A program made the translations under genes and the position numbers. From NCBI GenBank assembly GCA_963720655.1, contig CAVRFZ010000025.1, forward strand, positions 24,444 to 88,443: a stretch of DNA of 64,000 bases, written 5' to 3'. This stretch comes from an uncultured Acidobacteriota bacterium. GTDB lineage: Bacteria > Acidobacteriota > Terriglobia > Acidiferrales > UBA7541. Below the pieces are notes generated by a model. It was not told where the DNA came from, searched no databases, and was given only the letters and a program-made list of their open reading frames with translations. Numbering within the stretch: the first letter of the stretch is position 1; every line of letters begins with the position of its first letter. Shown piece after piece: positions 14,578 to 51,948 of the stretch.

Positions 14578-14589
14578 GGGTCGCGGTGC

Positions 14590-15528: not shown

Positions 15529-15546
15529 GTCCCCTGCCCCTTCAGC

Positions 15547-17976: not shown

Positions 17977-18183
17977 TGCTCTCCCTGGAGGGGCGTTCTC
18001 ACACCCGCCCCCGCGCCGAGCCCGGAGACCGGGGGAAAGAGAACGCGCGGAGCCTAACAAAAGGGGCTGTAGCGCGTCAAGGAACTGTCCCCTAATGGCC
18101 CCGATAAACAGGACATACGAGAGTGCAAACCCTTGATTGCGGAGCGCAATTCAGTTAGCTTTGCAACTCGCTGTGAGGTACCT

Positions 18184-31795: not shown

Positions 31796-34700
31796 TGCCA
31801 TCGAGCAGATATTCGATTCGGCGCAAGATCACGGAACTGGTTCTGGTCACCTGCGCGGTGGCAGTCCTTGTGGCCTGCGGTGTTTTTGCGGTCTACGACA
31901 TCGTGAGCTCCCGAGAGGCGCTCGCGCGCGACCTTATGACTATCGCGCAGATCACCGGATCCAACAGCACCGCCGCTCTTACGTTCGATGACGCTCAATC
32001 CGCCAATGAAATTCTCAGTTCGCTTAGCTCCAAACCACACATCGTCGAGGCGTGCATCTATAGGCGCGACGGAAGCGTTTTTGCCAAGTACAGCAGCGAC
32101 CCCTCCGCGGCGGATTTCTTGCCGCCTCCGGTTTCTCCCGACGGCGTGCGATCAATTAACGAATTCATGGAGGTTTTTCGTGAAATTCGTTTGAAGAACG
32201 AGGTTGTGGGCGCGATTTATGTGAAATCCGACCTTAAGGAGCTCAGCGCCCGCGAGGTTCGTTTCGCCTGGACGATTCTTGGAGTGATCTTACTTTCGTT
32301 CTTGTCCGTATATTTCTCCGCAGCCAAGTTGCAGCGGCTCATTTCCGATCCGATTCTGGATTTGGCCCGTGCCGCCTTCGCCGTTTCTACCGGAAAAGAC
32401 TATTCGCTCCGAGTCAGGAAGTGGAATGACGACGAAATCGGTTTTCTGTTTGACCGTTTCAACGAAATGCTGGGCCAGATTCAGGAACGCGACGTCGCTC
32501 TTCAGCAAGCGCGCGAGAGCCTGGAACTGCGCGTTCACGAACGCACGCTAGACTTGAAAAAAGAGATCGTCCAAAAGACAGCAGCCCAAGAGAAGCTTCA
32601 GCGCTCTCTCAGGGAGTTGGAAGATCTCAAATTTGCCCTTGACCAGCATGCCATCGTCGCCCGAACCGACGAGCGCGGAATTATCACCTTTGCCAACGAC
32701 AAGTTCTGCTCCGTTTCCCAATACAGCCGCGAAGAGCTGATCGGACAGGACCATCGGATTCTGAACTCCCGCTATCACAGCAAGGAATTCTTCGCCGGAT
32801 TGTGGGAAACGATCAAATCGGGAGAGGTGTGGAAAGGAGAAGTCAAGAATCGCGCGAAGGACGGGAGCTTTTACTGGGTTGACTCCACAATCGTTCCCTT
32901 CTGTGACGGCATCGGCAAGCCCAAGCAGTTCATCGTAATTCGCATGGACATCACAGGGCTCAAACAAATTGAAGAAGAATTGCGAGCCGCCAAGGACGTT
33001 GCCGAAGGCGCGAGCCGCGCGAAGAGCGAGTTCCTGGCCAACATGAGTCACGAAATTCGCACGCCAATGAACGGAATCATCGGCATGACCGAGCTGGCGC
33101 TCGATACGCAGTTGACCATCGAACAACGCGAATACCTCAACATGGTCAAGACCTCCGGCGTCTCGTTGTTGACACTCATCAACGACATCCTCGATTTCTC
33201 CAAGATCGAGGCGGGAAAACTAGACCTAGACGTGAGCGATTTTCCCCTGCGGCAAAGCGTCGGCGAGACCTTAAAGGCTCTCGGTTTCCGCGCGCATCAG
33301 AAGGGCCTCGAACTTGCGTGGCGCGTGGCGGAGAACGTGCCGGACCATCTGGCGGGGGACGCCAGTCGCGTGCGGCAGGTGCTTGTAAATCTGGTTGGAA
33401 ACGCAGTGAAGTTCACCGAAAAAGGAGAAATAGTCGTCGAAATCGAGCGGGATCCTAAGTCAACTGAGCAGACGATCCTTCTTCATTTCTGCGTGCGCGA
33501 TACGGGCATCGGAATTGCGAAAGAGAAACAGGACATGATCTTCGGGGCATTTACCCAAGCCGATAGCTCCACGACGAGAAGGTATGGCGGGACCGGACTC
33601 GGATTGGCGATTACAAGACGCCTCATAGATCTGATGGGCGGGAAACTGTGGCTGGAGAGCGAGCCAGGCGTGGGCAGCGCATTCCATTTTACGATTCAAT
33701 TCCAGCGAGCATCGGCCCAACCAGTTTCTGATTATCCGGATCCCCAAATCCTGTCGCACGCCTCGATTCTCGTCGTCGATGACAACGAGACAAATCGCAT
33801 CATCCTGGTTGAGATGCTCGGACGATGGGGGATGCAGATCGTGACCGCGAAAGATGCCAGAGAGGCCCTCGAAATCCTTGTACGCAGTGGAAACCGAGCC
33901 CCTCCTTCTCCGCAGTCATCTCAGATTTGCAGATGCCGGATATGGACGGATTCGAACTCGTAGAAAACATCCGCAAGAGTGTTCAGTTCGGTCAAATTCC
34001 GGTGCTCCTGCTGAGTTCGAGTGTGCAGCAAGGTGAGCACGAACGGTGCCGGCAACTGGGGATTTCAGCGTATTTGGCCAAGCCAATTCAGCCGTCGGAG
34101 CTTCTCAATGCGATTTTGAGCGCGCTGTCGCTGCATGCCAGTGAGCCGAGCCAGACGCAGGAAATGACGCAGGACAAGCCGCAGGAAGTGTTGCCACAAA
34201 GCGACCGGAGGCAAGGAATGAAAGTCTTACTTGCGGAAGATAACGCGGTCAATCGCACGCTCGCCACTCGCCTGCTTCAGAAACACGGCCACACCGTCGT
34301 TGTGGTCGAAAACGGACGCGAAGCTCTGGAAGCGCTCGAACGCGAAACCGTGGATCTGGTGTTGATGGACGTGCAGATGCCGGAGATGGACGGCCTGGAA
34401 GCCACGGCAGCGATTCGCGAAAAAGAGAAAAAGACGGGCCATCACTTGCCCATCATCGCGCTCACCGCGCACGCAATGAAAGGAGACCGCGAGAAGTGCC
34501 TGGCCGCCGGCACGGACGATTACCTGACCAAGCCGATTCGCACGGCGGATCTCTTTGCAGTTGTCGAGCGCTTGAGAAACGCAAAAACAAATACCACTTC
34601 CGAAGCACCCGCCATCACCAAAGCGCCGGCGACAAATGGTTTTGACAGCGATGCAGCGCTCAGGCACGTGGAGGGCGATCGCGACTTGCTCGATGAAATC

Positions 34701-34979
34701 ATCCGAATTTTTGCGGATCAATTCCCGAAAACACTGTACGAAATTCAGAATGCCATTCGCGCCGCCGACCTTCCTGCTCTCGAGCGAGCCGCCCATTCCC
34801 TGAAAGGCTCAGCGTCCAACCTTTTCGCGACCGGCGTGACTCAGGCTGCCGCAAAACTGGAAGAATCCGCGCGCTCCGGCGACTCTTCACGCTCTCGCGA
34901 ACAGTTTCAGGCGCTTGAAAGCGAAGTGGAAAAACTTCTGCGCGAACTCGAAGCTCTCTCGCGAAAGGTGGCCAGTTGA
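31792..34979 (+). pseudogene. hybrid sensor kinase (CHASE8-like sensor, HAMP, PAS, HisKA, HATPase, REC, REC, HPt) with an apparent -1 frame break inside the first REC
   Basis: ORF 31792-33963 ends in ILVVDDNETNRIIL...LVRSGNRAPPSP. The REC domain continues in ORF 33825-34979 as FSAVISDLQMPDMDGFEL. The break lies near the CCCC run at 33900-33905 and may be a sequencing error. Confidence 0.8.
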
Positions 34980-37135
34980 CATCGCTCTCGATTTTCGCGA
35001 GGAAGTCGCCTTCGGATTGGTTCCGCGGGAAATCCCCGGCCTCTTTCAGCGAGGCGATCCAGTATCGTCTGGTGATTGCGCTCGGATTCACCGTCCTTTA
35101 CGTAGCGTTGGATCACTCCGTCGTTTTTTTTCAGATATGGGAGGGAATCAGCGCCTGGTACCCTCCCGCCGGACTTGCCCTGGCGCTTCTCGTAGGACTT
35201 GATCTTGCTTACGCACCGCTTCTGTTGATCGCGGGGATGATCGCGGCAGGCGTCAACTATCCTCTGTCAGCGTTTTCGGTGGGATTTTGGGTTGTCAACT
35301 TCGTCGTCGCGATCGGATACACGTGCGCTGCTTACATGTTGCGCCGTCTCCGCGTTAACATCGCTTTCCGTTCTCTCCGCGATGTGAATCTGTTTGTGAT
35401 GGTGGCATTGGCAGCTTCATTTTGTGTCGCGGCTGCGGGCTCGGCAGCCTTCGTTTGGGCTGGAACGCTGCGACAAGCCGATTATCCCAAAGCGGTATTG
35501 AATTGGTGGATTGGCGATGCAGTTGCGCTGATTTGTCTCACGCCGTTTCTGCTCGTTCATGTCACTCCCTGGCTGCGCCGACGAGCTTTCCCCAAAGATT
35601 CGGTACTTTCACAACCTGATTCACCGCCATCCATCCGAGCGGTGAGCGGTTCTCCGGTCACCCGCACAATTGAAAGTTGCGCCCAAGGCGCCAGCATCCT
35701 TCTTTCCTTGTGGTTTGTGTTTGGCTGGAACCTGCTGAAGAGCTATGACCTTTTCTATCTTTTCTTTTTGCCAATTCTTTGGATTGCGGTTCGCCGCGGA
35801 TTGCGAGGAGCCACCAGCGCAGTGGTGCTGCTCAATTCCAGTGCGATGCTGATGCTTCGCATCTATTCGTCGGACTCGCAGCGGCTGACGCTCTTGCAGA
35901 TTTTGATGTTGATCGTCTCGCTCACCGGACTCTCGATCGGAACGGTGATCTCCGAGCGTGAGCTCGCCGAGCAGGAATCGAGGGAAGGTGAGGCGCGGCT
36001 CGAGGCTCTCGTGAAGTCCATTGATGAACTGGTGTTTGAATTTGATGCCGATAATAAATACAAGAACGTCTGGACGAACGACGAAACACTTCTTTTGCGG
36101 CCTAAAGGTGATTTGATTGGACGAAAGGTTACCGCGTTTCTCGATGAAGAGAGCACGCGCCCATTTCCTCCGATTTTTCAGCGGGTGCTGCGTACCGGCC
36201 GGGGCGAGAGTGTTGAATATCGCATACCCTTTCCTTCCGGGGAGCGCTGGTTCTTGGGCCGGGTTACTGCGATTCCGACGGCGGGAGGCGTGCCTAAAAC
36301 GGTTTGCATGACGGCGCGCGACATCACCGGCCTCAAACGAGCCGAACAAGATTTGCGCAGCGCCCGCGATGCCGCCGAAGCAGCGAGCCGCGCGAAGAGC
36401 GAATTCGTCGCCAATATGAGCCACGAAATACGCACTCCCATGAACGGGATTATCGGGATGACCGAACTGGCCCTTGATACCGAATTGACCGCCGATCAGC
36501 GCGAATATATGGAGCTTGTGAAGCTTTCTGCCGATTCATTATTGGCGCTTCTGAACGATATTCTCGATTTCTCCAAAATCGAAGCCGGAAAGATGGACTT
36601 GGACCCGCTGGAGTTCGCGGTGCAGGAGAATCTGGACGAAGCCTTGAAACTGATGCGATTTCGAGCCCGGCAGAAAGCCCTCGTGTTCGAATGGCGGATC
36701 GCGTCCGACGTCCCGCCGGTATTGATTGGCGACCCCGTAAGGTTGCGACAGGTACTGATCAATCTGGTGGGGAACGCGATCAAGTTTACAGAGCGCGGGG
36801 GCATCGATGTGGACGTCGCTTGCGGTCATCGCGAGGGTCAAAGTCTCGAGGTGGTATTCCGGGTGCGCGACACGGGGATTGGAATTCCCTCCGAAAAGCA
36901 GGCTCTGATTTTTGACGCCTTCACGCAAGCGGATAGTTCCACAACGCGAAGGTTCGGCGGCACCGGTCTCGGCCTCGCGATATCAAGCAGCCTCATCAAG
37001 TTGATGGGAGGCCAGATCTCGGTGGAAAGCGAGCCCGGAAAGGGCAGCACCTTTATGTTTACAGCGAAATTTGGACTACCGGCTGCCGAGTACTTGAATG
37101 CGATCCAGCCAAACCATCCAGAGAGGGTACGATGA
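34976..37135 (+). CDS. membrane sensor histidine kinase (MASE1-like TM domain, PAS, HisKA, HATPase)
   Basis: About 300 aa of polytopic N-terminus, then PAS, H-box [15 protein letters not shown], and [10 protein letters not shown]. The start overlaps the upstream stop by 4 nt. Confidence 0.8.
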
Positions 37136-38100
37136 TGATGGACCAAAAAGAAAACAAAGAGCGCATCCTCATTGCCGAGGATGATCCTGTTTCGCGACGC
37201 GTGCTCGAGACCCTGCTCAAAAAATGGGGCCACGAAATCGTGGTCGCAAACGATGGTCTGGAAGCAGTGCGCCTGCTGGAGAGCCGGGAGGCTCCGCGAC
37301 TCGCCGTTCTGGACTGGATGATGCCTGGCTTGGAGGGCGTTCAGGTCTGCCAGCGAATTCGCCAGGACACTACGCGACCGTATATGTACCTGCTGCTGCT
37401 CACCGCGCGCAGCCAAAAGGATGATCTCGTGCGCGGACTGGAGTCCGGCGCCGACGACTATCTGACCAAGCCCTTCGACGCACAGGAATTGCGAGCGCGC
37501 CTGCACGTCGGGAAGCGAATTTTAGAATTGCAGGACAATTTGATCGCTGCCCGCGAAAAGCTGCTCTACCAGGCCACTCACGACGCGCTCACGGGAATTT
37601 CCAATCGCGGAGTGAGTCTGGACGCGCTTCGCCGTGAGCGCTCTCGCCAAACCCGAGAAAGCGGTTTCTTCGCGATCGCGCTGCTCGACATCGATCATTT
37701 CAAATACGTCAACGACACATACGGCCACCTCGCCGGGGACGCGGTACTTACCGAGGCGGCTCAGCGAATCAAGAGCTGCATTCGGCCCTACGACACTTTA
37801 GGACGTTATGGAGGTGAGGAATTCCTGATTGTCCTTCCTACAGCCGATGGGCCCGGAGCTGCGTGTGTCGCCGAGAGAATCCGCGCAGCATTTGAATCGC
37901 AGCCAATCGTCACCGAGCGTGACAAGATCGCGATTACCGTAAGCCTCGGAATCGCCGCGAGTGGAGGACAGAACTCCTTCGATGCGGAATCGCTCTTGCA
38001 GAGGGCAGACGAAGCGCTCTATCGCGCGAAGCAGATGGGACGCAATCGTGTGGAAGTCGCAGTCCCATCGATAGAGGATGAGGGCGTGACCTCAGCCTAG
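37132..38100 (+). CDS. response regulator - GGDEF diguanylate cyclase
   Basis: Receiver ([25 protein letters not shown]) followed by a GGDEF domain with the active-site RYGGEEF. Confidence 0.9.
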
Positions 38101-40313: not shown

Positions 40314-40673
40314 ATGGAACTATCTACACGTGATTCCGGCACAGCCACGATTGTTGACGTGGTCGGCGACATTACGCTCTATAACTCGCCGGACATGCGC
40401 AAAATGCTCATCGATCTGCTGAAGACGCAGCGCAAACCTCGCGTGATCGTGAATATGCTCAGTGTGAAATATATTGATAGCGCGGGCGTTGCTTCTCTGG
40501 TAGAAGGTCTAAAAATTGCTAGGGATCTGAAGAGCACATTTGCGCTTTTTGGTCTCAGCCGCACGGCTCGAGAGGTACTCGAGCTCACGCGCCTGATAAA
40601 GGTTTTTGAAGTCTATAACAACGAACAAGAAGCTCTGCAGGGTGGCGGCGCACCAGCCGCTCCCGCGAGGTAA
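40314..40673 (+). CDS. STAS-domain protein, MlaB-like by position
   Basis: STAS pattern (IVDVVGDITL...VIVNMLSVKYIDSAGVASLV). It lies directly upstream of mlaE-mlaF-mlaD on the same strand. Confidence 0.7.
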   Translation: MELSTRDSGTATIVDVVGDITLYNSPDMRKMLIDLLKTQRKPRVIVNMLSVKYIDSAGVASLVEGLKIARDLKSTFALFGLSRTAREVLELTRLIKVFEVYNNEQEALQGGGAPAAPAR

Positions 40674-40732
40674 TTTCCGGTCGGATTCGGCGGGCAATTT
40701 TCGGGGATGCCGCCACCCGCCGGGTTTCACCA

Positions 40733-41527
40733 ATGGCATTTACTGAATCAGTCGGCGCAGCGACAATTAACGGCCTAGCCTACGTTGGTGGCTTGGCTCG
40801 CATCACGGGGGGCGCCGCCAAGGCCCTCTTCGTCGAACCCGGTCGCGTTGGAAAGCTCCTCAGTCGCTCGATTCATCAAGCGATGGCTGTCGGCGTGGAA
40901 GCCATTCCCATCGTTTCGCTCATTTCTTTCTTCATCGGATTGATTTTTGCGCTTCAAAGCGCCTATCAACTTCGCAAACTTGGCGCTCTCCAATTCGTTG
41001 CCGCGGCAGTCGCCATCGCAATCACGCGCGAGCTTGGCCCCCTGATGACGGCGGTCATGGTGATTGGCCGTTCCGGTTCTTCTTTCGCCGCAGAAATCGG
41101 CACAATGAAGGTCAACGAAGAAATCGATGCGATGGAAACGATGGCGCTCGAGCCAGTCCGTTTCCTCGTCGCTCCTAAATTGATCGCGATGATGCTCATG
41201 CTGCCCTGCCTCACCACCTGGGCCGATTTCATGGGCGTCGTAGGCGGAGGAGTGTTCGGCGTCACCAGCGGCCCCTTCACGTGGCATTCCTATTTCCAGG
41301 CCACGCTAGACGCACTGGTGAGGCGCGACATTCTCACAGGTTTGGTCAAGAGCATCATGTTCGGCGTTGTGATCACCGCCGTCGGCTGCATGGAGGGATT
41401 TTCGACCGGCCTCGGTTCCGAACAGGTGGGCCGCTCCACAACTTCGGCGGTCGTTAAATCAATTTTCATGGTCATTTTTGTAGACGTCATTTTTACAGCC
41501 ATTTTTTATTTCGCGATGCCGGACTGA
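40733..41527 (+). CDS. mlaE: MlaE-family ABC transporter permease
   Basis: REL(G)P..TA....GRSGS..AAEIG.M...EEIDA is the MlaE signature (ITRELGPLMTAVMVIGRSGSSFAAEIGTMKVNEEIDAM). Confidence 0.85.
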   Translation: MAFTESVGAATINGLAYVGGLARITGGAAKALFVEPGRVGKLLSRSIHQAMAVGVEAIPIVSLISFFIGLIFALQSAYQLRKLGALQFVAAAVAIAITRELGPLMTAVMVIGRSGSSFAAEIGTMKVNEEIDAMETMALEPVRFLVAPKLIAMMLMLPCLTTWADFMGVVGGGVFGVTSGPFTWHSYFQATLDALVRRDILTGLVKSIMFGVVITAVGCMEGFSTGLGSEQVGRSTTSAVVKSIFMVIFVDVIFTAIFYFAMPD

Positions 41528-41534
41528 ACGGACT

Positions 41535-42383
41535 ATGTCACCCGACCCTATCGTGAAACCGCCAGAGAGCCGCGCCGACGGTGGCCCCGCGATCTCCGTG
41601 CGCAACTTGCGCGTGAATTACGGCGAGCGTGAGATTCTGCACAGCATCAGCTTCGACATCAGTCCCGGCGAGACGCTCGTGATCCTCGGCGGCTCGGGCT
41701 CTGGCAAAAGCACGTTGTTGCGCACGCTGGTGGGACTTGAAAAACCCAGCGGCGGCGAAATCTGGATTCGTGGAAAGAATTTTGCGGCGCTGGACGACGC
41801 GAGCCGCGACGAGCTTTTGAAAAAAATGGGCATGTCGTTTCAAGGCGGCGCCTTATTCGGCTCGATGACCGTCGGCGATAACGTCGCGCTTCCGCTTCGC
41901 GAGCACACCCCTCTCGACGACTCCACAATTGAAATCATGGTCCGCCTGAAACTCGATCAGGTTGGCCTCTCAGGATTTGAGAATTACATGCCCGCACAGC
42001 TCAGCGGTGGAATGAAAAAGCGCGCCGCCATTGCGCGCGCCTTGGCCATGGATCCGGAGATTCTCTTCTTCGACGAACCATCCGCTGGTCTCGACCCGAT
42101 CATCGCCGCCGGCATCGACGAACTCATCCTGAAATTAAAAAAAGCGTTTCGCATGACGATCGTCGTCGTCACCCACGAACTCGCCAGCGCCTATTTGATC
42201 GCCGATCGAATGATCCTTCTCGATAAAGGCGTCATCGTCGCCAATGGAACTACGGCCGAGCTGCAAAAGAGCCTGCAGCCGCGCGTGCGCCAATTTCTCG
42301 ATCGCGTTCCGGAGCCGGAAATTTCAACGGAGCTGGATTATCTGCAGATGTTGACGGGAGAGATTCCGCCGTTGCGGCAATGA
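41535..42383 (+). CDS. mlaF: MlaF-type ABC transporter ATP-binding protein
   Basis: Walker A GGSGSGKST, signature LSGGMKKRAAIARA, Walker B ILFFDEPSAGLDP. Confidence 0.85.
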   Translation: MSPDPIVKPPESRADGGPAISVRNLRVNYGEREILHSISFDISPGETLVILGGSGSGKSTLLRTLVGLEKPSGGEIWIRGKNFAALDDASRDELLKKMGMSFQGGALFGSMTVGDNVALPLREHTPLDDSTIEIMVRLKLDQVGLSGFENYMPAQLSGGMKKRAAIARALAMDPEILFFDEPSAGLDPIIAAGIDELILKLKKAFRMTIVVVTHELASAYLIADRMILLDKGVIVANGTTAELQKSLQPRVRQFLDRVPEPEISTELDYLQMLTGEIPPLRQ

Positions 42384-42465
42384 TGGAGGGCGCGGAGCTC
42401 ATGCTATACTCCGCGCGCCTGAGGGGGACCTTCCCGAAACATCGGGCGGGATATTAAGGAAGCCA

Positions 42466-43432
42466 ATGGAATCGAAGCGAGAACAGGCACTCGTCGGATT
42501 ATTCGTAGTCGTGGCATCGGCATTACTGATCGCCACCATCTTGTATCTTTCCGGCAGCCTCTCCAGCGGGTTGGTCCCGTATCGCACCTATTTCAAGAAC
42601 GCGGGCGGAATGATTCCTGGCACCGAGGTTCACTACGCCGGCGGTCCGAAAATAGGGCGCGTCACGAAGGTCGCTCCAGATCCGAAAGATCCCACGCGCA
42701 TGGAGGTCGATTTCTGAATTGAGCCCAGCGTTCCGGTTAAGACCGACAGCTAAAGCGACGGTCGCCAGCACCAGTCCCCTGGGAGAAAATTTTCTTGGTC
42801 TTCTCGCCGGGACTCCTCCGGCCCCGCACGCGCCGCCGGGTTCGACGCTTCCCTCCAAAGAATATGTCAGCTTTGCAGACATCGGTGACATGCTCTCCGG
42901 CCTCGGCCCTTCCGCTCAGGAGCTAATCACCCATTTGAATGATCGCGTAATGGAGATGAAGGTAACGCTGGCGCGCGTGAATGACGTGCTCGATGACGAG
43001 AATCGCGCCAACATCAAAGCTACCATCGGCAACATAAAAGGCATGCTCGCTGAAAATCGCCCTGCCATTCGTTCGTCGCTGAATCACATAAACGATGCGA
43101 GCGCAAAGCTCAGCCCTCTCCTCGATAAGTTCAACAACCTCTCCGACAAAGCCAACGAGCTGATCGCCCACATGGACGGCGTCATCACCGATCCCAACGT
43201 CAAGGAGTCCATCGATAAGTTGAAGCAAACTCTAACGCAAGCGAACGAATTGACCACCCGGCTGAACAACCTGATGGATGCCAATTCCGAGAACCTCGAC
43301 GAGATCATCGACAACCTCCGCGCCGTCTCGAACAACATGCGCGAATTCACCGAAACCATTAAGACTCGTCCGTACACTTTGATTCGCACCTCAAGCCCGA
43401 AGCCGCACCAGACGGGTCAGGCGCCGAAGTAA
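42466..43432 (+). pseudogene. mlaD: MlaD/MCE-family protein disrupted by an in-frame TGA (42715) and a +1 shift (about 42751)
   Basis: Frame 1 reads ...RMEVDF*IEPSVPVKTDS*. Frame 2 then continues KATVASTSPLGENFLGL..., which together form one continuous MCE-domain motif. This may be a sequencing error or a pseudogene. Confidence 0.7.
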
Positions 43433-43466
43433 GGCTGAAGAGACAGGAGCTTTGAAAGGAACATTA

Positions 43467-44096
43467 ATGCGTCGCGCGAACAGTGCTGTGCTGGTGGCGG
43501 TACTTGTAGGAGTTCTGTCAGGATGTGGCGGCACGCGTCCTACCAAATACTACGTGCTCGACGTTCCCGCTCCGCCCACCACTCAGTCGTCCACCGCGTA
43601 TCCTGTCTCCCTGCTTGTCGCCAGGCCCGTCACCTCGCACCTCTATCGCGATGACCGCATCGTTTTCGGCGCGGGTCCGGTGGAACTTGGCACTTATGAG
43701 TTTGAGCGCTGGGCTCAATCCCCCGCCGACATGATGCAGGATCTCCTCGTCAGCTACTTGCGCAACTCCAAACAATACCGCTCCGTTCTTCGCCCCGGAA
43801 GTAATGCGAGGGGTGATTACATTGTTCGCTCTTACCTGCGCTCACTCGCTGAGATTGACTCACCGGATTTTGTCGCCCGCTTTGCCATCCATCTCGATCT
43901 ATACGATCCGAAGAAGGGCGCCACTGTCTGGAGCGGCGACTACTCCCATGACGAACCTGTGGGAAGCAAGACCGTTACGGCGGTTGTCGAGGCACTCGAC
44001 AAGAATGTTCGCGCCGGGCTGCAGCAACTCACCTCGGAAATGGGCCAGTACTTCGCCGAGCATCCGCCTACAGCGCCGTCACAGGCCGCCAAATAG
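43467..44096 (+). CDS. ABC-type transport auxiliary lipoprotein (DUF330 / PqiC-like)
   Basis: Lipobox VLSGCGG followed by KYYVLD. It lies directly downstream of the Mla/MCE genes. Confidence 0.7.
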   Translation: MRRANSAVLVAVLVGVLSGCGGTRPTKYYVLDVPAPPTTQSSTAYPVSLLVARPVTSHLYRDDRIVFGAGPVELGTYEFERWAQSPADMMQDLLVSYLRNSKQYRSVLRPGSNARGDYIVRSYLRSLAEIDSPDFVARFAIHLDLYDPKKGATVWSGDYSHDEPVGSKTVTAVVEALDKNVRAGLQQLTSEMGQYFAEHPPTAPSQAAK

Positions 44097-44248
44097 CGGC
44101 TCGGTCTGGGCGGCCCGTTCCATCTCTGCCAAATCCGCTGTTTCGTTTTGAAATTTCCCCACTGATGCGTATTGGCTCATCTATTCGCTCCTAGCTGCCG
44201 ATACGACATTCAAGGCGCCTTTGTCACAGGTGTCGTTGCGGGGGACCC

Positions 44249-46207
44249 TTGGATTTCCTGAGGCAGCTTTTCGGCTCGGGCGACTTCCAGCCACACGGCT
44301 TCTGCTATCTCTGGAACGCCCGGCTGGTCTGGCTGCACGCGATCTCAGATCTGCTGATAGGGCTCGCGTATCTTACGATTCCGGTCACGCTCGTCTGGTT
44401 CATTCGCAAACGGCGGGATCTTCCCTTCAGCTGGATCTTCGTCTGCTTCGGAGTATTCATCGTTGCCTGTGGCGCCACGCACGTCTTGGAAGTCTGGAAT
44501 CTCTGGCACGCGAACTATTGGCTCGCCGGCGTGATCAAGGCCATCACAGCGGCTGCCTCCATTCTCACTGCGATCCTTCTGATTCGACTGGTGCCGCAGG
44601 CCCTCGATCTTCCCAGCTCTAAGCAGTGGCTCCTTGCCAACGCCGCGCTTCAGCAGGAGGTGCAAGATCGGCGTGAACTCGAGCTCACTCTCCGCATCAG
44701 CGAGTCGATGTATCGCGAACAGGCCGAACTTCTCGAGCTAACTCACGACGCTATTTTCGTCCGTAGCCTCGAGAAGAAGGTTCTCTACTGGAATCGCGCA
44801 GCCGAGCGGCTCTACGGCTGGCAAAAGGAAGAGGCCCGCGGAAAAATTACTCACGAGCTTCTTCATACTGTTTCCCCGAAACCCTTGGAAGAAATTCAGG
44901 CCGACGTATTTGAAAAAGGTTACTGGGAAGGCGAACTCATTCATACCCGCCGCGATGGAGCGCAAATCACAGTCTCCAGCCGCTGGGCTTTGCGCGTGGA
45001 TGCCAATGGCAAACCGCTTTCCATTCTCGAAAGCAATCGAGATGTTACCCATCGCAAGTTGGAAGAAGCGAAGTTTCGGAATCTTCTCGAATCGGCCCCT
45101 GATGCAATCGTGATCGTCGACGAACACGGCCGCATCGTTCTGACGAATGCCCAAACGGAGAAATTGTTTGGTTATCCGCGTCACGAATTGCTGCACGAGC
45201 CCATCGAAATCCTCATTCCGCCTCGGTTTCATGGCCAGCATGCCGTACATCGCACCAGCTATGCTCATGCGCCTCGCCCTCGGGCTATGGGAGCTGGTTT
45301 GGAACTTTACGGCCGCCGCAAGGACGGCACTGAGTTTCCCGTTGAAGTCAGTCTGAGCCCGCTCGAAACAGAAGAGGGCAAGCTCGTCTCCAGTGCAATC
45401 CGCGATGTTTCTACCCGCAGGCAAGCCGAACAAGAGGTCGAGCTCCGCAGACAGGAATTGGCCCGCTCCAACGCCGATCTAGCCGCCGTCAACCAGGAGC
45501 TCGAAGCCTTCAGTTACTCCGTCTCTCACGATCTGCGCGCTCCCTTGCGCCACATTGATGGGTTCGCCCGCATTTTGAAAGAGGAGCATGCTGCAGAGCT
45601 GTCCGAAGAGGCTCAGCGCTATCTCGAACGCATCCTCCATGGCGCGAATCATATGGGCCAGCTTGTGGATGACCTCCTGAATCTCGCCAAGGTCGGAAGA
45701 AAAGAGCTGGTCCGCCAAAGAACGAAGCTCGACGTGCTTGTTCGGGAGACGCTTGCCGACTTGCCTGAAACGGAAAACCGTGCCGTTGAGTGGCGCGTTG
45801 AACCGTTGCCGGAAGTTGACTGCGACCCCGGCTTGCTCAAATTAGTCTTCAACAATCTTCTTGGCAATGCCCTCAAATTTACGCGCGGCCGCCAGCCCGC
45901 CGTGATCGAAATCGGCACACTCGACTCCGCTGAGATGACCACAATTTTTGTCCGCGACAATGGTGTGGGCTTCGATCCCAAGTATGCCGATAAACTTTTT
46001 GGAGTCTTCCAACGCCTTCATCGCCAAGAAGACTTCGAGGGCACAGGCATCGGCCTGGCTACCGTTCAGCGAATTATTCGCAGGCACGGTGGCGAAGTTT
46101 GGGCCGAATCTGAACTGGATCGTGGCGCCACATTCTGTTTCTCGCTCGGCGGTCGGTCATCAGCCGCACGCGAGCCCCGGCCTGTGGAGGTGAGTGACCG
46201 TGCCTGA
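44249..46207 (+). CDS. histidine kinase with N-terminal ETR1-like ethylene-binding domain (EBD), two PAS, HisKA, HATPase
   Basis: TTG start. ISDLLIGLAYLTIPVTLVWFIRKRRDLPFSWIFVCFGVFIVACGATHVLEVWNLW aligns with Arabidopsis ETR1 [52 protein letters not shown]. H-box VSHDLRAPLRHI. Confidence 0.85.
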   Translation: MDFLRQLFGSGDFQPHGFCYLWNARLVWLHAISDLLIGLAYLTIPVTLVWFIRKRRDLPFSWIFVCFGVFIVACGATHVLEVWNLWHANYWLAGVIKAITAAASILTAILLIRLVPQALDLPSSKQWLLANAALQQEVQDRRELELTLRISESMYREQAELLELTHDAIFVRSLEKKVLYWNRAAERLYGWQKEEARGKITHELLHTVSPKPLEEIQADVFEKGYWEGELIHTRRDGAQITVSSRWALRVDANGKPLSILESNRDVTHRKLEEAKFRNLLESAPDAIVIVDEHGRIVLTNAQTEKLFGYPRHELLHEPIEILIPPRFHGQHAVHRTSYAHAPRPRAMGAGLELYGRRKDGTEFPVEVSLSPLETEEGKLVSSAIRDVSTRRQAEQEVELRRQELARSNADLAAVNQELEAFSYSVSHDLRAPLRHIDGFARILKEEHAAELSEEAQRYLERILHGANHMGQLVDDLLNLAKVGRKELVRQRTKLDVLVRETLADLPETENRAVEWRVEPLPEVDCDPGLLKLVFNNLLGNALKFTRGRQPAVIEIGTLDSAEMTTIFVRDNGVGFDPKYADKLFGVFQRLHRQEDFEGTGIGLATVQRIIRRHGGEVWAESELDRGATFCFSLGGRSSAAREPRPVEVSDRA

Positions 46208-46652
46208 AGCCGTCGAAATCTTGTTGGTCGAAGACAATCCTGCTGACGCCGAGCTGACGATTCACGCTCTCCGGAAAAGCAAGCTGGTCAATCACATTTG
46301 CCTTCTGCAGGACGGCGCCGAGGCTCTTGATTTTCTCTTCTGCCGGGGCGCCTACTCCATGCGGAGATTCGACACTCCTCCCCGTCTGATCCTCCTCGAT
46401 TTGAAACTCCCCAAGGTCGACGGCATTGGAGTCCTCGAACAAATAAAAAGCGACACACGAACGAAAGCTATTCCGGTGATCCTTCTCACTTCCTCTAAGG
46501 AAGAGCGTGATGTGGCAAGAAGCTACAAGCTCGGCGTGAACAGTTACATCCAAAAACCGGTGAGTTTCACGGAGTTTCAAGACGTTGTGAGGCAGCTCGG
46601 CCTGTATTGGCTGATAGCCAATAGCAAGCCACCAGCTTCCGCATTCTCTTAG
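46194..46652 (+). CDS. single-domain response regulator (CheY/Rcp1-like)
   Basis: ILLVEDNPADAEL, LILLDLKLPKVDG, LTSS and IQKP are receiver motifs. It overlaps the kinase gene by 14 nt. Confidence 0.85.
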   Translation: MTVPEAVEILLVEDNPADAELTIHALRKSKLVNHICLLQDGAEALDFLFCRGAYSMRRFDTPPRLILLDLKLPKVDGIGVLEQIKSDTRTKAIPVILLTSSKEERDVARSYKLGVNSYIQKPVSFTEFQDVVRQLGLYWLIANSKPPASAFS

Positions 46653-46665
46653 GAGTCTCGACTCG

Positions 46666-48699
46666 ATGTCGGAAATCGCGTCCGAAAAAGAACCGCTTCG
46701 AGCAAAATCGCCGCTTCGTCTGCTCCAGGTGGAGCATGAGGCCGACGATATAGAACTCTGCCTGCGCGAGTTGAAGAAATCCGGGCTTCACTTTGAAGTT
46801 GACACCGTCGCCGCCAGGGAGCTTTACGTTCAGAAACTAATCGAGAAGCCTTTCGACGTCGTCATCGCCGACTATCGCCTGCCTGGCTGGACGGGAATGG
46901 ACGCGCTAGCCGAAATCAAGCAACGCGATCTCAATATTCCGCTAATTCTCGTCACGGGCACGCTGGGTGATCGTCTCGCAGTGGAATGTATCAAGGAGGG
47001 AATCACCGATTACGTCTTGAAAGACCAGTTGGCCCGCCTTCCCGCTGCCCTGATTCGAGCGCGCGAAGAAAAGGAGTTGCGCGACGCCGAAACCCGCGCC
47101 ATGGACGCGCTTCGTGCCAGCGAAGCTCGCTATCGAGGCCTGGTCCAAAACGCAACTTACGGAATGCTCTGGGTCACCGGCGAAGGGAATCTTCTCGCCG
47201 TAAATCCGGCATTCGTCCGCATGCTGGGATACAACTCCGCCGAAGAACTTCTCGCCATTGGTAACACCACTGCGCTTTACCGTGATCCCGCGGCATCGAC
47301 GAAACTCCGCGAAAGGTACAGGGCCAGTGGGCACGTAGAGGCCACCGTCGAATGGAAACGCAAAGACGACAAAATCATCACCGTACGGCTCAGCGGCCGC
47401 CGCGTCATCGACCCCGAACAGAATGGCGAGTGCGCGGAAGTCATCGTCGAGGATGTTACCGAGCGCCTGGCTCTCGAAAAACAACTGATGCAGGCTCAAA
47501 AGTTCGAAGCCATCGGCCAGCTCGCCGGTGGAATCGCCCACGACTTCAACAACATGATCGGAGCCATCATGGGCTGGTCCGATATTGGGATGGAAGAGAC
47601 CGAAGAAGGCGCTCGCCTCCGCCGCCATTTTCAAAAAATCCACCAGCAGGCCGAACGCGCCGCCGCGCTCACTCGTCAGCTCCTGGCTTTTGCTCGCCGC
47701 CAGATTCTAGAGCCGCGCAATATCGACCTGAACCAGAGCGTCACCGAAACTCTCAACCTCCTCGAAAAGGTGATTGGCAGCAATATCGAGATCAAGACCA
47801 TCCTCGCGCCAGCTCTCTCCCTCGTTCGCGCTGATCCCACGCAAGTCGAGCAGGTGCTCATGAATCTCTGCATCAACGCTCGCGACGCCATGCCCGAGGG
47901 CGGTTCCTTGCTCATCGAGACCGCGCTTGTCATCTTCGACACGGAATACTGTGCCCACCAACCATTCGCCCGCCCCGGCGACTACGTGATGCTCTCAGTC
48001 ACCGATACGGGAACGGGAATGGACACGGCCACCATCGATCGCATCTTTGAGCCGTTTTTCACCACCAAGGAACTGGGCAAGGGCACCGGTCTTGGCCTCG
48101 CCACGGTATACGGCATCGTCAGGCAACACGGCGGATTCACCCATGTGTATAGCGAACTGGGCGTCGGAACTACATTTCGCACATATTTTCCAGCCGCACC
48201 GCTCGCAACCAAATCCGTTGAAATAGTCGAGGACACGCAACCGGTTCGCGGCGGCGTCGAGACGATTCTCGTTGTAGAAGATCACCCCGGGCTGCGCGAA
48301 CTTGCTTTCGAAACTCTCACCAACCTCGGCTACAAAGTGATTCTCGCCTCTGACGGCGAGCAGGGGCTGCATGAATTTGAAAGCCGCCGCGACCAAATCA
48401 ATCTTCTTCTCTTGGATGTTGTTCTGCCCAAATTGAGCGGCCCGCAAATTTACTCGCGTATTTGCGAAATCAAGCCCGATGTTTCCGTGATTTTCGCAAC
48501 GGGTTACAGCGCTGATATCGCCTCGCTTCAAAAGGCCCAACAGAAAGGCTTGCCGGTGCTGCAAAAGCCCTACTCCCCGCGAAGCTTAGCGCGGAAGGTC
48601 CGCGACACCTTGGATCAACCCCGGGTTCCCGTTGTGCAAGAAAATGTGCAAGAAAAGCCCTGTAATTCGCCTCACCCCGCCGCACTTCATCACGATTAG
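46666..48699 (+). CDS. hybrid kinase: REC - PAS - HisKA - HATPase - REC
   Basis: N-terminal receiver (VVIADYRLPGWTG), PAS, H-box GGIAHDFNNMIGAI, GTGLGLATVYGIV, and a C-terminal receiver (LLLLDVVLPKLSG). Confidence 0.85.
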   Translation: MSEIASEKEPLRAKSPLRLLQVEHEADDIELCLRELKKSGLHFEVDTVAARELYVQKLIEKPFDVVIADYRLPGWTGMDALAEIKQRDLNIPLILVTGTLGDRLAVECIKEGITDYVLKDQLARLPAALIRAREEKELRDAETRAMDALRASEARYRGLVQNATYGMLWVTGEGNLLAVNPAFVRMLGYNSAEELLAIGNTTALYRDPAASTKLRERYRASGHVEATVEWKRKDDKIITVRLSGRRVIDPEQNGECAEVIVEDVTERLALEKQLMQAQKFEAIGQLAGGIAHDFNNMIGAIMGWSDIGMEETEEGARLRRHFQKIHQQAERAAALTRQLLAFARRQILEPRNIDLNQSVTETLNLLEKVIGSNIEIKTILAPALSLVRADPTQVEQVLMNLCINARDAMPEGGSLLIETALVIFDTEYCAHQPFARPGDYVMLSVTDTGTGMDTATIDRIFEPFFTTKELGKGTGLGLATVYGIVRQHGGFTHVYSELGVGTTFRTYFPAAPLATKSVEIVEDTQPVRGGVETILVVEDHPGLRELAFETLTNLGYKVILASDGEQGLHEFESRRDQINLLLLDVVLPKLSGPQIYSRICEIKPDVSVIFATGYSADIASLQKAQQKGLPVLQKPYSPRSLARKVRDTLDQPRVPVVQENVQEKPCNSPHPAALHHD

Positions 48700-49021
48700 C
48701 GTTGACACCATTTCTTCCCTCGTGGTATTTCAGAATTAATCCGTGGACACCGGCTTCTTGCCGGGTTGCTGGGTCGTCAGACGCGGAAGTACCACCCAAA
48801 GGACGATCCGGCAACGAGCCCACCCACCCCGGGAGGTGGAATGCCGCTTGGCTTTCACCTCCCTTTTTTATGCCTGTCTTTGTAATGCCGGTTTTCTGCT
48901 GATTGCGGCGCAGTGGCGCGCCGCCTCGCGATCGCTTGCTTACTCAAGCACTTGCGGGGTTATAATGCGCACTCGGCAGCCACTTAGGATCGCGCCAGTA
49001 TTTGAATGTGGGGGAGGGGAC

Positions 49022-49384
49022 ATGGGCCTGCAAATTGCCGCGCGTAAAGCCGGAAACGTCACCATCCTCGATCTGCAAGGCCGTATTACAATCGGCACCA
49101 GCAATGACGCTCTTGGTGCCGAATTGCGACGCCTCGCCGAAATCGCCCCCTGCGACATCCTTGTCAATCTCTCTGGCGTTCAACAGGTAGACAGCTCCGG
49201 CATCAGCACGCTGGTTCGTTCCTTCGTCACGCTCGAACGCAACGCCGGCAGCCTGAAGCTTCTCAATCCCACCGGCCACGTCCGCGAAGTCCTCGAACTC
49301 ACGCGCCTCATCCAATCCATCCCCACCTACACCGACGAAGCAAAAGCCGTCGCCAGCTTCCGCGGCGGCGCCGCCCTGGCCTAA
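49022..49384 (+). CDS. STAS-domain protein (anti-sigma-factor-antagonist type)
   Basis: ATG after a GGGGAGGGGA SD. ILDLQGRITIG...ILVNLSGVQQVDSSGISTLV. About 50 percent similar to the STAS protein at 18184. Confidence 0.8.
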   Translation: MGLQIAARKAGNVTILDLQGRITIGTSNDALGAELRRLAEIAPCDILVNLSGVQQVDSSGISTLVRSFVTLERNAGSLKLLNPTGHVREVLELTRLIQSIPTYTDEAKAVASFRGGAALA

Positions 49385-49465
49385 TCCGGCCGCAAGCAGT
49401 ATTTGATTTCGTGAAAGTAGTTTCGGAAAAAGAAAATAAACCGGCGGGATAAATTAAGTGAAGAC

Positions 49466-50053
49466 CTAAGCGTTCTTCTTCAGGTCCGCCAGCACGAGCT
49501 TCGCGACTTCCTTCAGCGTGTCAAACACACCCTGCCCGGTAACTGCAACCGCCTCCATCGAAGGCTCACCCTTCACGCTAAGCTGTTTCTGTAATTCCTC
49601 TACGGGCAGCACGTTCGGCAGATCGCGCTTATTCAACTGCAACACGTAAGGAATCGTATCGAAATTCAAATTGTGATCCTTCAGATGTTCGCGCAGGTTG
49701 TCGAGTGTTTCGAGGTTCGCATCCAGCCGCTCTTCCTGCGAATCCGCCACGAACACCACTCCATCCGCGCCCTTCAAAATCAATCGTCGGCTCGCCTCGT
49801 AAAACACCTGCCCCGGAACGGTATACAAATGAAAACGAGTCCGAAATCCGCGCACAGTCCCCAGGTCGAGCGGTAGAAAATCGAAGAAAAGCGTGCGATC
49901 CGTCTCGGTGGCGAGCGACACCATCTTTCCCTTTTGGTTCGACCCCGTGTGCTCGTAGATCCACTGCAGGTTCGCGGTCTTCCCGCCAAGGCCGGGGCCA
50001 TAGTAGACAAGCTTGCAGTTAATTTCGCGCGCGGGAAAATTAATAAACGGCAC
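49466..50053 (-). CDS. mglA: MglA-like Ras-superfamily small GTPase
   Basis: GTG start 4 nt after GAGGAA gives [44 protein letters not shown] and LNKRDL all match the MglA family. About 195 aa. Confidence 0.85.
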
Positions 50054-50298
50054 AATTTCCTCAGTTTTGCAGCCGAGGTTACTTATAGCACAGCCTCGCA
50101 CCACCGCCAACGCGACCGCCACCCCGTGCTTCGCAATTGACAACTCTCCGCCGCACTGCCAGTTAGCAGGAATTCACCCGCGGACTGACATTCTGTGTCC
50201 AATCCGCCAAAAATCAGCCCGCCACCTACCTTGAGCCCTGCATTGACGCAGGTGCCCGACTTTGCTATGTTTCCTCGACAGTAATACGGAGCCACCAC

Positions 50299-50913
50299 GT
50301 GAAGCATCGCGCAGCCCGCACCTCTCGATCCCCGAGAAGTAGCCAGAAGATGCTGAAAACAAAGAGCTTGAAAGCGATCGCCAAGGCAAAAGTCATGCCT
50401 CCCGATCCCGAGGCGGGCGCCAAGCTCGCTCAGCTCAAATTCTACGAAGAGGCTCTTAAGTATTTTCAGCAGCAGAAGTTTCAACGCGCCAAGCAGTCCC
50501 TGGAACGCGCCCTGGAAGGTCCCAGCAGGGAACTCCGCGATCGCGCGCAAGTTCATGTCCGCATTTGCGAACAGCGCATCTCGCGCCTGCCGGCTGCTGC
50601 GCCAAAATCCGCCGAGGATCACTACACGCAGGGCGTCGCGCTCATGAATCTGGGCCGCTGGGACGAAGCCCGCGAGCATCTTGATCGCGCCCGCAAATCC
50701 GCCCCTAAAGCCGACCACATCGTGTACGCGATGGCCGCGCTCGATTGCCTCACCGGCGAAGCTGATTCTGCCATGCAGAATCTGAAAATCGCCATCCAGC
50801 TTCGCCCCGAAAATCGCTACCACGCCCGCAATGACGAGGACTTCGCATTCTTGCAGGAAGACCCTCGATTCACCGAGCTGCTCTACCCCGAGCGAGACGG
50901 TTCGAGCGCCTAG
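50299..50913 (+). CDS. TPR-repeat protein
   Basis: TPR-like helical repeats (YEEALKYFQQQKFQRAKQSLERAL, HYTQGVALMNLGRWDEAREHLDRA, AMQNLKIAIQLRPEN). The start may be at 50350. Confidence 0.6.
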   Translation: MKHRAARTSRSPRSSQKMLKTKSLKAIAKAKVMPPDPEAGAKLAQLKFYEEALKYFQQQKFQRAKQSLERALEGPSRELRDRAQVHVRICEQRISRLPAAAPKSAEDHYTQGVALMNLGRWDEAREHLDRARKSAPKADHIVYAMAALDCLTGEADSAMQNLKIAIQLRPENRYHARNDEDFAFLQEDPRFTELLYPERDGSSA

Positions 50914-50928
50914 CCTCAATTTTCTTCC

Positions 50929-51948
50929 GTGAAAAATAGTTCGCACCCTCGCGTCCGCCCAGTTCGCATCGTGGCACTCGGCGGCGGCACCGGACTCTCC
51001 ACAGTCCTGCGCGGACTCAAGCAGCACATCGGCGATCCCAAACGCGGGATCGAGCGGCCCATCTCGGATCTCGCCGCGGTCGTCACCGTCACCGACGACG
51101 GCGGAAGTTCTGGCCGTCTTCGCCGCGATTATCGCGTCCTCCCGCCGGGCGACATTCGCAATTGCATGGTCGCGCTTTCAAAAGACGAGGACCTCCTCGG
51201 CAAATTATTTCAATACCGCTTTTCCGCCGGCCGAGGCCTCGCCGGCCACAGCTTCGGCAATTTATTTCTCACCGCCCTCACCAATATCACCGGCGATTTC
51301 CCGGAAGCAGTGCACGTTTCCTCGCAGGTGCTCGCAATTCGCGGACGCATCTTTCCTTCGACGACCGAGAACGTCACCCTCGAAGCCGAGCTCGAAGATG
51401 GTTCCCTCGTGGCCGGCGAAACAAGAATTTCCCGCTCGAAGCAGCGAATCCGCCGCATTCGTCTCGTCCCGCGCCGCGTTCGTCCGCTCTCCGAAGTGCT
51501 CGCCGCGCTTCACTCCGCAGACTTGATTCTCGTCGGCCCCGGCTCGCTCTACACCAGCATCATTCCCAATCTCCTGGTCGAGGGCGTCACAAAAGCGATC
51601 GCCCGCTCGAGCGCCAAATGCGTTTACATCGCCAACCTCATGACGCAACCTGGCGAGACCGAGCACTACTCCGTCGCCGATCACGTCCGCGCCATCTACG
51701 AACACACCCGCGTTCCCATATTCCACTCGGCGGTGATCAATCGCACTCCGGCCTCCCCGCAAATGTTGCGCCGCTATCGCAAACAAGGCGCCGAGATTGT
51801 GAAGCCTTCGCTCACTGAACTGAAGCGGATGCGTTTGCCCTATATCACCTCCGATCTTCTGCAACAGCGCGGCAAGATCCGCCACGATACCAGCCGCCTC
51901 GCTAAACTCCTCCTGCGCGAATTCGTCACGCAGCATCCCCGCCACTGA
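50929..51948 (+). CDS. YvcK/CofD-family gluconeogenesis-morphology factor
   Basis: IVALGGGTGLSTVLRGLK, VVTVTDDGGSSGRLR, PPGDIRNCMVAL, GPGSLYTSIIPNLLV. Confidence 0.85.
   Translation: MKNSSHPRVRPVRIVALGGGTGLSTVLRGLKQHIGDPKRGIERPISDLAAVVTVTDDGGSSGRLRRDYRVLPPGDIRNCMVALSKDEDLLGKLFQYRFSAGRGLAGHSFGNLFLTALTNITGDFPEAVHVSSQVLAIRGRIFPSTTENVTLEAELEDGSLVAGETRISRSKQRIRRIRLVPRRVRPLSEVLAALHSADLILVGPGSLYTSIIPNLLVEGVTKAIARSSAKCVYIANLMTQPGETEHYSVADHVRAIYEHTRVPIFHSAVINRTPASPQMLRRYRKQGAEIVKPSLTELKRMRLPYITSDLLQQRGKIRHDTSRLAKLLLREFVTQHPRH

Follow-up and report, generated by a model that had tools for sequence, protein, structure and literature searches.

A histidine kinase gene in a 64,000-nucleotide stretch of acidobacterial DNA (the window; positions 24,444 to 88,443 of contig CAVRFZ010000025.1, assembly GCA_963720655.1) encodes at its N-terminus a transmembrane domain that, judged by its sequence, is a true relative of the ethylene-binding domain (EBD) of plant receptors. 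The source lineage is uncultured Acidobacteriota, Terriglobia, Candidatus Acidiferrales. We read the protein as a membrane-bound two-component sensor kinase with a copper-dependent input for ethylene or small olefins, of the type represented by ETR1, SynEtr1, and AzoEtr1, and we put the probability of this reading at about 0.65. Genes for a single-domain receiver and a hybrid kinase follow, and the three open reading frames (ORFs) are co-directional on the + strand. We conclude that they form a functional unit in which the receiver gene is translationally coupled to the kinase gene. The ETR1-type domain is the only one in the window. The three genes and the parts of the kinase are listed below.

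44249-46207, + strand: sensor kinase gene, EBD-PAS-PAS-HisKA-HATPase, 652 amino acids, TTG start (from the ORF and its translation)
44249-44623, + strand: ethylene-binding-type transmembrane domain, residues 1-125 of the kinase
44291-44314, + strand: motif PHGFCYLW, residues 15-22, ahead of helix 1, outside the Pfam ETR1_N span and predicted to be periplasmic
44348-44350, + strand: codon of Asp34, which matches ETR1 Asp25 and AzoEtr1 Asp35 in the alignment
44468-44482, + strand: CGATH with Cys74 and His78, which match the ETR1 Cu(I) ligands Cys65 and His69 in the alignment
44537-44539, + strand: codon of Lys97, which matches ETR1 Lys91, the polar partner of Asp25 in helix 3
44711-45052, + strand: PAS domain 1, about residues 155-268 (PAS_3 at 179-259; PAS family matches in two stretches)
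45062-45424, + strand: PAS domain 2, residues 272-392, FixL-like (domain scan and structure-sequence matches)
45503-46147, + strand: transmitter core, HisKA at residues 419-482 (55.4 bits) and HATPase_c at residues 526-633 (80.1 bits)
46200-46652, + strand: single-domain receiver gene, 150 amino acids, GTG start, overlapping the kinase stop codon by 8 nucleotides
46666-48699, + strand: hybrid kinase gene, REC-PAS-HisKA-HATPase-REC, 677 amino acids, ATG start (Pfam scan)

A transmembrane domain of the ETR1_N family

The Pfam scan matched ETR1_N (PF25487) to residues 26 to 121 of the kinase (44324 to 44611) with 138.8 bits and an E value of 7.3e-41. The score is five times the gathering threshold of 27, and the match covers positions 2 to 97 of the 97-position profile. 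BLASTP with composition adjustment aligned the kinase to the N-terminus of Arabidopsis ETR1 at 37% identity over 105 residues (E = 6e-25); the ETR1 sequence was entered by hand and not taken from a database. The AzoEtr1 sequence, in contrast, is a database sequence. Plasmid ABSP7_p1 of Azospirillum brasilense Sp7 encodes it as a protein of 525 amino acids whose start, MFGGVEAF, is that of the published cloning primer and whose D35, C75, and K98 lie at the positions numbered in the paper on that receptor. The two EBDs are 46% identical, and BLASTP against AzoEtr1 gave an E value of 1e-44 over residues 7 to 270, so that the alignment extends past the EBD through the linker and the first PAS domain.

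An earlier note on this DNA, made from the letters alone, had proposed an ETR1-type EBD in a bacterial histidine kinase, a proposal that the Pfam and BLASTP results bear out. The two peptides that it quoted are exact: ISDLLIGLAYLTIP corresponds to residues 32 to 45 and FGVFIVACGATHVLEVW to residues 67 to 83 of the ORF at 44249 to 46207 (+). The note had named a similarity confined to the composition of transmembrane helices as one outcome that would speak against it, and shuffling shows otherwise. Over 2000 shuffles of the EBD, z was 29.8 against ETR1 and 36.3 against AzoEtr1, and the best shuffle score was 59 to 65, compared with observed scores of 197 (ETR1) and 262 (AzoEtr1). The notion that the kinase resembles ETR1 only by chance, or through the composition of its hydrophobic helices, is therefore left with practically no probability. 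The Pfam score, the composition-adjusted BLASTP, and the shuffles all refute it, no point was found in its favor, and it was discarded. Because every sequence-level comparison gave the same answer, the EBD is assigned to the ETR1_N family.

The residues of the ethylene-binding site are retained. In the alignment, D25, Y32, I35, P36, I62, C65, and H69 of ETR1 correspond to D34, Y41, I44, P45, I71, C74, and H78 of the kinase, at a constant offset of +9. ETR1 K91 corresponds to K97, the loop between helices 2 and 3 being three residues shorter than in ETR1. With the seven ETR1 residues and Lys91 all matched, the claim that the key ligand and binding residues are present stands. Besides D25, C65, and H69, the remaining four of the seven are reportedly those described by Wang et al. 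in 2006, namely, Y32, I35, P36, and I62. "Seven amino acids" have been given as required for ethylene binding in AtETR1 (PMC11819568, PMC10266040), where C65 and H69 coordinate Cu(I) and D25 positions H69 and bridges to K91 for signal transmission (PMC10266040). The D35A and C75A mutants of AzoEtr1 are nonfunctional (PMC11819568). Conservation was scored on the best 150 representatives from a profile search, each from a separate 50%-identity cluster, of which 140 were aligned. Among these diverse members of the subfamily, the binding-site positions are conserved in 138 to 140 of 140 (139/140 for Lys97). Conservation at this level points to selection on the binding site and not to a plain membrane anchor.

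A further conserved element, PHGxCYxW, precedes helix 1. P15, H16, G17, C19, Y20, and W22 are invariant in 24 acidobacterial homologs; in the 140 diverse representatives, H16 is kept in 136, and C19 and W22 are each kept in all 140. The version in AzoEtr1 is LPHGVCLFW. A MAFFT alignment pairs C19 with Cys4 of ETR1, which together with Cys6 forms the disulfides of the ETR1 dimer. Receptors of this type have been described as "disulfide-linked homodimers" (PMC10266040). The motif could act as a disulfide lock of the dimer, or it could be a site of copper entry.

The AlphaFold2 model, for which the input alignment was shallow, consists of three long helices (residues 24 to 54, 60 to 86, and 90 to 119) with a mean predicted local distance difference test (pLDDT) score of 67.7. 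Helices 1 and 2 are joined by an RKRRD loop, whose predicted cytoplasmic location fits the positive-inside rule. The predicted topology has an extracytoplasmic N-terminus and a cytoplasmic C-terminus.

The nearest proteins, which are 99% (P0125), 89%, and 87% identical to the kinase, come from metagenome assemblies; a search of an assembly index for the exact kinase sequence had no hit. Because orthologs align from residue 1 (MDFLRQLF...), the TTG start of the kinase is supported, and P0125 likewise has 652 amino acids. P0125 differs from the kinase at six residues, all within the first 150, and the other 502 are identical. Five of the six differences are conservative and lie inside the EBD helices (L42F, V46L, V65I, L80M, and V82I), the sixth is I150M, and together they span 44372 to 44698 (+). 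This distribution may reflect gene conversion from a paralog or relaxed helix positions.

PAS domains, transmitter core, and the three-gene unit

Behind the EBD, the Pfam scan found two PAS domains and a HisKA/HATPase core, as the earlier note had described. The linker between the EBD and the PAS domains, LPSxxQ...AN.ALQ.E, is conserved, and the region of the first PAS domain (PAS1) aligns with the PAS domain of AzoEtr1. The kinase belongs to class I by its HisKA and HATPase_c domains. Its phospho-acceptor, His427, lies in the H box SHDLRAPL, and the N, G1, F, and G2 boxes of the ATP-binding site are intact (NLLGNALKF, DNGVGF, FGVFQR, and GTGIGL, as read from the translation). The nearest solved relatives of the core are 8f71 and bacteriophytochrome kinases. 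In the NCBIfam scan of the proteins, no model reached its cut-off; public relatives are therefore named just "PAS domain S-box protein."

The second PAS domain (PAS2) matched FixL heme-PAS structures with E values of about 1e-17, and its His331 aligns with His200, the proximal heme ligand of Bradyrhizobium japonicum FixL. Arg206 and Arg220 of FixL contact the heme propionate and bound O2; the corresponding positions of PAS2 are Ser and Leu. Among 98 homologous last-PAS domains, His331 is present in 47. From these alignments, heme binding by PAS2 is possible. The top solved match of PAS2 is 10jx_A, an uncharacterized "multi-sensor signal transduction histidine kinase."

In a different division of labor, the transmembrane domain would be mainly a membrane anchor and dimerization module and the cytoplasmic PAS domains would do the sensing, with PAS2, for example, detecting O2 or redox state through a FixL-like heme. 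The FixL match and the position of His331 fit such a protein. So do the paralogs with three to five PAS domains (779 to 1031 amino acids), which are common in the same lineage; their variation by one to three extra PAS domains suggests that these domains have signal-specific functions. We nevertheless consider this alternative very unlikely. D34, Y41, I44, P45, I71, C74, H78, and K97 are kept almost without exception in proteins whose overall identity is below 50%, whereas the two FixL arginines are replaced in PAS2 and His331 is found in only about half of the last-PAS domains. Moreover, sensing by the EBD and sensing by PAS domains are not mutually exclusive.

The start of the receiver gene at 46200 was chosen after the gene calls in relatives; an alternative GTG at 46194 would yield 152 amino acids and a 14-nucleotide overlap with the kinase gene. 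The product is a lone receiver domain (Pfam). It matches the bacteriophytochrome response regulators 5ic5 (E = 2e-43) and 5brj (E = 3e-42), as well as RcpA (E = 8e-25) and Rcp1 (E = 8e-24), and it fits the Rcp1/RcpA/BRR-type class, whose members are stand-alone, are about 150 amino acids long, and adjoin their kinases. The hybrid kinase comprises an N-terminal REC domain (about residues 17 to 135), a PAS domain (154 to 266), HisKA (284 to 346), HATPase (390 to 511), and a C-terminal REC domain (534 to 645), and it is CckA-like by an NCBIfam match below the cut-off. As read from the translations, all three receiver domains, the lone one and the two of the hybrid kinase, retain an acidic pocket together with the Asp, Thr, and Lys residues. 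Both hybrid-kinase receivers are present in 47/47 of the relatives listed, and the number of intervening PAS domains appears to vary from none to three. The ORFs and the Pfam scan thus agree with the earlier note's account of an overlapping CheY-like regulator followed by a REC-PAS-kinase-REC hybrid.

To count as a conserved triad, an EBD locus had to carry a related receiver immediately downstream (E ≤ 1e-40) and then a homolog of the hybrid kinase (E ≤ 1e-140); 78 loci from different species were scored in this way with crude ORF calling. The kinase-receiver-hybrid triad was found at 33 or more of the 78, and a further nine carry the hybrid kinase only. At several of the remaining loci, the same genes lie slightly further downstream, past the flag distance, and some of these loci have a split-looking kinase or an intervening kinase ORF. 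When positions 43900 to 49600 of the window were scanned, no promoter of the sigma-70 type was detected, and terminator-like sites were less frequent than in shuffled sequences.

The same genes had been called a phosphorelay, which goes too far. The Pfam scan found no Hpt domain in the kinase, the receiver, or the hybrid kinase, so a His-Asp-His-Asp relay is beyond the evidence, and what the loci display is the conserved adjacency of the three genes. Within the window, an Hpt domain occurs only in the ORF at 33825 to 34979, which is part of another hybrid kinase, one with a CHASE8 domain, some 10 kb upstream. A cryptic ChpT-like Hpt protein encoded elsewhere in the genome is possible.

Known receptors, proposed signal path, and choice of ligand

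The closest system by way of working is AzoEtr1/AzoRR-Etr1 of A. brasilense Sp7 (ABSP7_p1; PMC11819568). Both kinases have an N-terminal EBD with the seven residues and the lysine, a histidine kinase output, LPHGxCxxW ahead of helix 1, and an LPSxxQ..AN.ALQ.E linker into PAS, and in both systems a single-domain receiver gene overlaps the kinase stop codon. The window kinase has two PAS domains, whereas AzoEtr1 has one. Its H box, SHDLRAPL, is classical and part of a phytochrome-kinase-like core, whereas that of AzoEtr1 is of the AHEMSQPL type. The two receivers are 24% identical, and no counterpart of the conserved REC-PAS-kinase-REC hybrid has been described for Azospirillum. The hosts differ as well, an uncultured acidobacterium here and a root colonizer there.

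SynEtr1 (slr1212, UirS) of Synechocystis PCC 6803 and GeiEtr1/2 of Geitlerinema (PMC6682694) share with the window kinase the fusion of a bacterial EBD to a histidine kinase. They are functional kinases that pass phosphoryl groups to response regulators, and their binding of ethylene has been shown experimentally. The cyanobacterial receptors work with PAS/GAF (cyanobacteriochrome) photosensory modules, a DNA-binding regulator, and a small RNA; in contrast, the Pfam scan found neither a GAF domain nor a DNA-binding regulator in the window cluster. Arabidopsis ETR1 has in common with the kinase a three-helix EBD, an N-terminal Cys ahead of helix 1, and a HisKA/HATPase core, but the kinase has PAS domains in place of GAF, lacks a fused receiver, and carries PHGxCYxW where the plant N-terminus has CxC. 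Because it has no GAF domain by the Pfam scan, it is not a plant-type receptor; ETR1 in plants signals through CTR1 and EIN2, largely independently of its kinase. The Cph1-Rcp1 and bacteriophytochrome pairs have the most similar transmitter core and adjacent 150-residue receiver (5ic5, 5brj, RcpA, and Rcp1), although their input is a PAS-GAF-PHY bilin photosensor instead of an EBD and PAS domains. The kinase appears to work like an ethylene-receptor input module and is probably a functional sensor of ethylene or a small olefin.

In such a sensor, Cys74 and His78 of helix 2 would bind a single Cu(I) ion within the three transmembrane helices of each monomer, with Asp34 of helix 1 orienting the histidine. 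Ethylene would bind the copper, and the Asp34-Lys97 bridge would relay the change to helix 3. From there the signal would reach the HisKA/HATPase core by way of the conserved linker and both cytoplasmic PAS domains. By analogy with ETR1, where the effect has been shown, and with SynEtr1 and AzoEtr1, ethylene would probably lower autophosphorylation. The phosphoryl group may pass to the coupled phytochrome-type receiver, to the N-terminal receiver of the hybrid kinase, or to both, and the N-terminal receiver may in turn set the activity of the second kinase and its C-terminal receiver.

Several points weigh against this account. For SynEtr1, inhibition of the kinase by ethylene has only indirect support, and for AzoEtr1 it is a prediction (PMC11819568). 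Signals of their own could also enter through the two PAS domains, PAS2 resembling the FixL heme-PAS. The EBD model is of moderate confidence, and a PDB sequence search with the EBD alone at E ≤ 10 returned no solved EBD structure, just a chance match to EccD5. To the missing Hpt domain is added that the Pfam scan found no DNA-binding or enzymatic output domain in the three proteins. Finally, the organism is uncultured, and no observation links it to an ethylene source.

The rarity attributed to such proteins does not hold. At 50% identity, the EBD profile collects 10,214 clusters at E ≤ 1e-3 and 4,517 at E ≤ 1e-30 among 1.84 billion representatives. With thousands of clusters and a curated Pfam family of its own, the domain is common in bacteria and not rare. 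A genome scan that used the PHGxCYxW motif as its pattern, followed by confirmation, found more than 533 EBD loci in species-representative genomes. The best 80 of these loci lie mostly in Acidobacteriota bins, several of them from peat or groundwater, and also in Chthoniobacterales, Polyangiaceae, Steroidobacteraceae, and a Coleofasciculus. Among PLSDB replicons, 20 carry an EBD homolog, seven of them from Azospirillum. Relatives come from soil, peat, and groundwater metagenome bins, and the named ones are labeled "Candidatus Acidiferrales bacterium" or "Candidatus Acidoferrum sp." For a protein of an uncultured Acidiferrales with such relatives, the suggested relevance to plant-microbe signaling is speculative.

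The statement that experimental work exists essentially for the Synechocystis receptor alone is out of date. Saturable binding of 14C-ethylene by two Geitlerinema receptors was reported in 2019 (PMC6682694), and ethylene binding and genetics of AzoEtr1 from the soil proteobacterium A. brasilense followed in 2025, with residues 1 to 130 binding 14C-ethylene saturably (PMC11819568). Putative ethylene receptors in several bacterial phyla have also been published (PMC11819568, PMC7700396, PMC6682694). Literature searches on acidobacterial ethylene receptors found no paper. A catalogued family with thousands of bacterial members and a proven bacterial example is thus already known. The additions made here are a conserved set of three genes that includes a hybrid kinase, a His/Cys motif near the N-terminus that the Pfam model leaves uncovered, and a possible second input through a heme-PAS domain.

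The size and spread of the family bear on the identity of the ligand. The kinase may be a true ETR1_N homolog whose physiological ligand is carbon monoxide, acetylene, propylene, an isocyanide, or another alkene, or which reports copper or redox status, with any binding of ethylene being incidental. The very large number of clusters and their spread over lineages that are not plant associated favor this possibility, as do the presence of the domain in Acidobacteriota, Verrucomicrobiota, and Myxococcota and in groundwater and peat bins and the extra invariant PHGxCYxW motif of the bacterial subfamily. It counts in the same direction that sites of the ETR1 type have a weaker affinity for other olefins and for related pi-acceptor ligands as well. 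However, all tested EBDs with the seven residues, from Arabidopsis, tomato, Synechocystis, Geitlerinema, and Azospirillum, bind ethylene saturably (PMC10266040, PMC6682694, PMC11819568). AzoEtr1, which has the same N-terminal motif, responds to ethylene at 100 parts per billion, and the residues of the known site are all unchanged in the window kinase. We therefore regard a different physiological ligand as unlikely, though worth keeping in mind, and favor ethylene or a small olefin.

Flanking genes and the meaning of an acidobacterial EBD kinase

The three-gene unit is flanked by the following conserved neighbors.

40314-44096, + strand: upstream genes for a STAS (MlaB-like) protein, MlaE, an ABC ATPase, a disrupted MlaD, and an auxiliary lipoprotein (conserved synteny)
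49022-49384, + strand: downstream STAS-domain gene, about 120 amino acids as called in relatives (STAS at residues 98-202 of the long ORF 48743-49384)

In orthologs that are 72 to 99% identical, the shared gene order is citrate synthase, STAS, MlaE, ABC ATPase, MlaD, auxiliary lipoprotein, EBD kinase, receiver, hybrid kinase, STAS, sometimes a TonB_C protein, and a divergent Arf-like GTPase. Mla-type genes precede the EBD kinase in about 31 loci. They were not detected in four others (L024, L033, L036, and L040), where citrate synthase lies directly upstream of the three-gene unit. Because these four loci carry the unit without Mla genes, the adjacency is lineage synteny only, and a functional link of the Mla-type lipid-transport genes to the kinase was dropped from consideration. 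The downstream STAS protein is a conserved neighbor and a possible output partner.

The MlaD gene (42466 to 43432, +) is broken in the window and intact (321 to 324 amino acids) in relatives. Compared with the DNA of two relatives (L004 and L005; 99% identity over 150 aligned bases), a TCA codon has become a TGA stop at 42715 to 42717, and about 33 nucleotides after the new stop, near 42750, a one-nucleotide insertion has changed CAG-TAAAG to CAGCTAAAG. The broken gene is either a pseudogene or an assembly error. Further upstream, a CHASE8-HAMP-PAS-HisKA-HATPase ORF (31792 to 33963, +) overlaps a REC-REC-Hpt ORF (33825 to 34979, +) by 139 nucleotides. In relative L001, a single protein of 1193 amino acids carries all the domains from CHASE8 to Hpt, and this region of the window is probably a second frameshifted gene. 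Just upstream of citrate synthase, a MASE1-PAS-HisKA-HATPase kinase (34976 to 37135, +) is followed by an overlapping REC-GGDEF diguanylate cyclase (37132 to 38100, +); the two are a separate cyclic di-GMP signaling pair.

On the other side of the unit, an Arf/Ras-like small GTPase (49466 to 50143, −; 195 amino acids as called in relatives) is conserved beside the cluster, and next to it lies an ORF of 313 amino acids without a Pfam match (50083 to 51027, −). Two unusual HlyD-type membrane-fusion proteins are encoded within 12430 to 18060 (−). The one at 15547 to 18060 (−; 836 amino acids) is fused to three GAF domain matches, and the one at 12430 to 14577 (−; 714 amino acids) has a weak match to Peptidase_M50 that falls short of the threshold (26.7 bits; cut-off, 27.2). 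In some Acidobacteriota, the EBD also occurs as a protein by itself, about 137 to 160 amino acids long and without an output domain (P0019 and P0056; L015 1560-1973, L076 5959-6423, and L083 5956-6435). In L015, the stand-alone EBD gene occupies the orthologous site, with the auxiliary lipoprotein gene on one side and the STAS and Arf-like genes on the other, and the kinase, receiver, and hybrid kinase are missing.

A bolder proposal, which we rate as speculative and quite improbable, is that the EBD kinase of the Acidiferrales, the phytochrome-type receiver, and a hybrid of the form REC-PASn-kinase-REC make up a conserved chromosomal circuit. It would integrate ethylene in the soil, which could announce waterlogging, anoxia, or neighboring organisms, with O2 or redox state through a heme-type PAS2. 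The invariant periplasmic PHGxCYxW motif would then be a copper-entry site or a disulfide lock of the dimer specific to the bacterial subfamily. If this were true, ethylene would be a general soil-gas signal for free-living bacteria and not a plant-microbe signal.

The practical value of the finding is modest: the kinase is one of thousands of homologs, AzoEtr1 already has the same input module and an overlapping receiver gene, and the organism is not yet cultivable. The kinase gene would come as no surprise to a specialist, but it is a reasonable candidate for taking binding assays to the Acidobacteriota, which are among the most abundant and least cultivable soil phyla. If the protein binds ethylene, experimentally grounded perception would extend from cyanobacteria and one rhizosphere proteobacterium to this phylum, and the result would support ethylene as a widespread, plant-independent gas signal in soil and peat.

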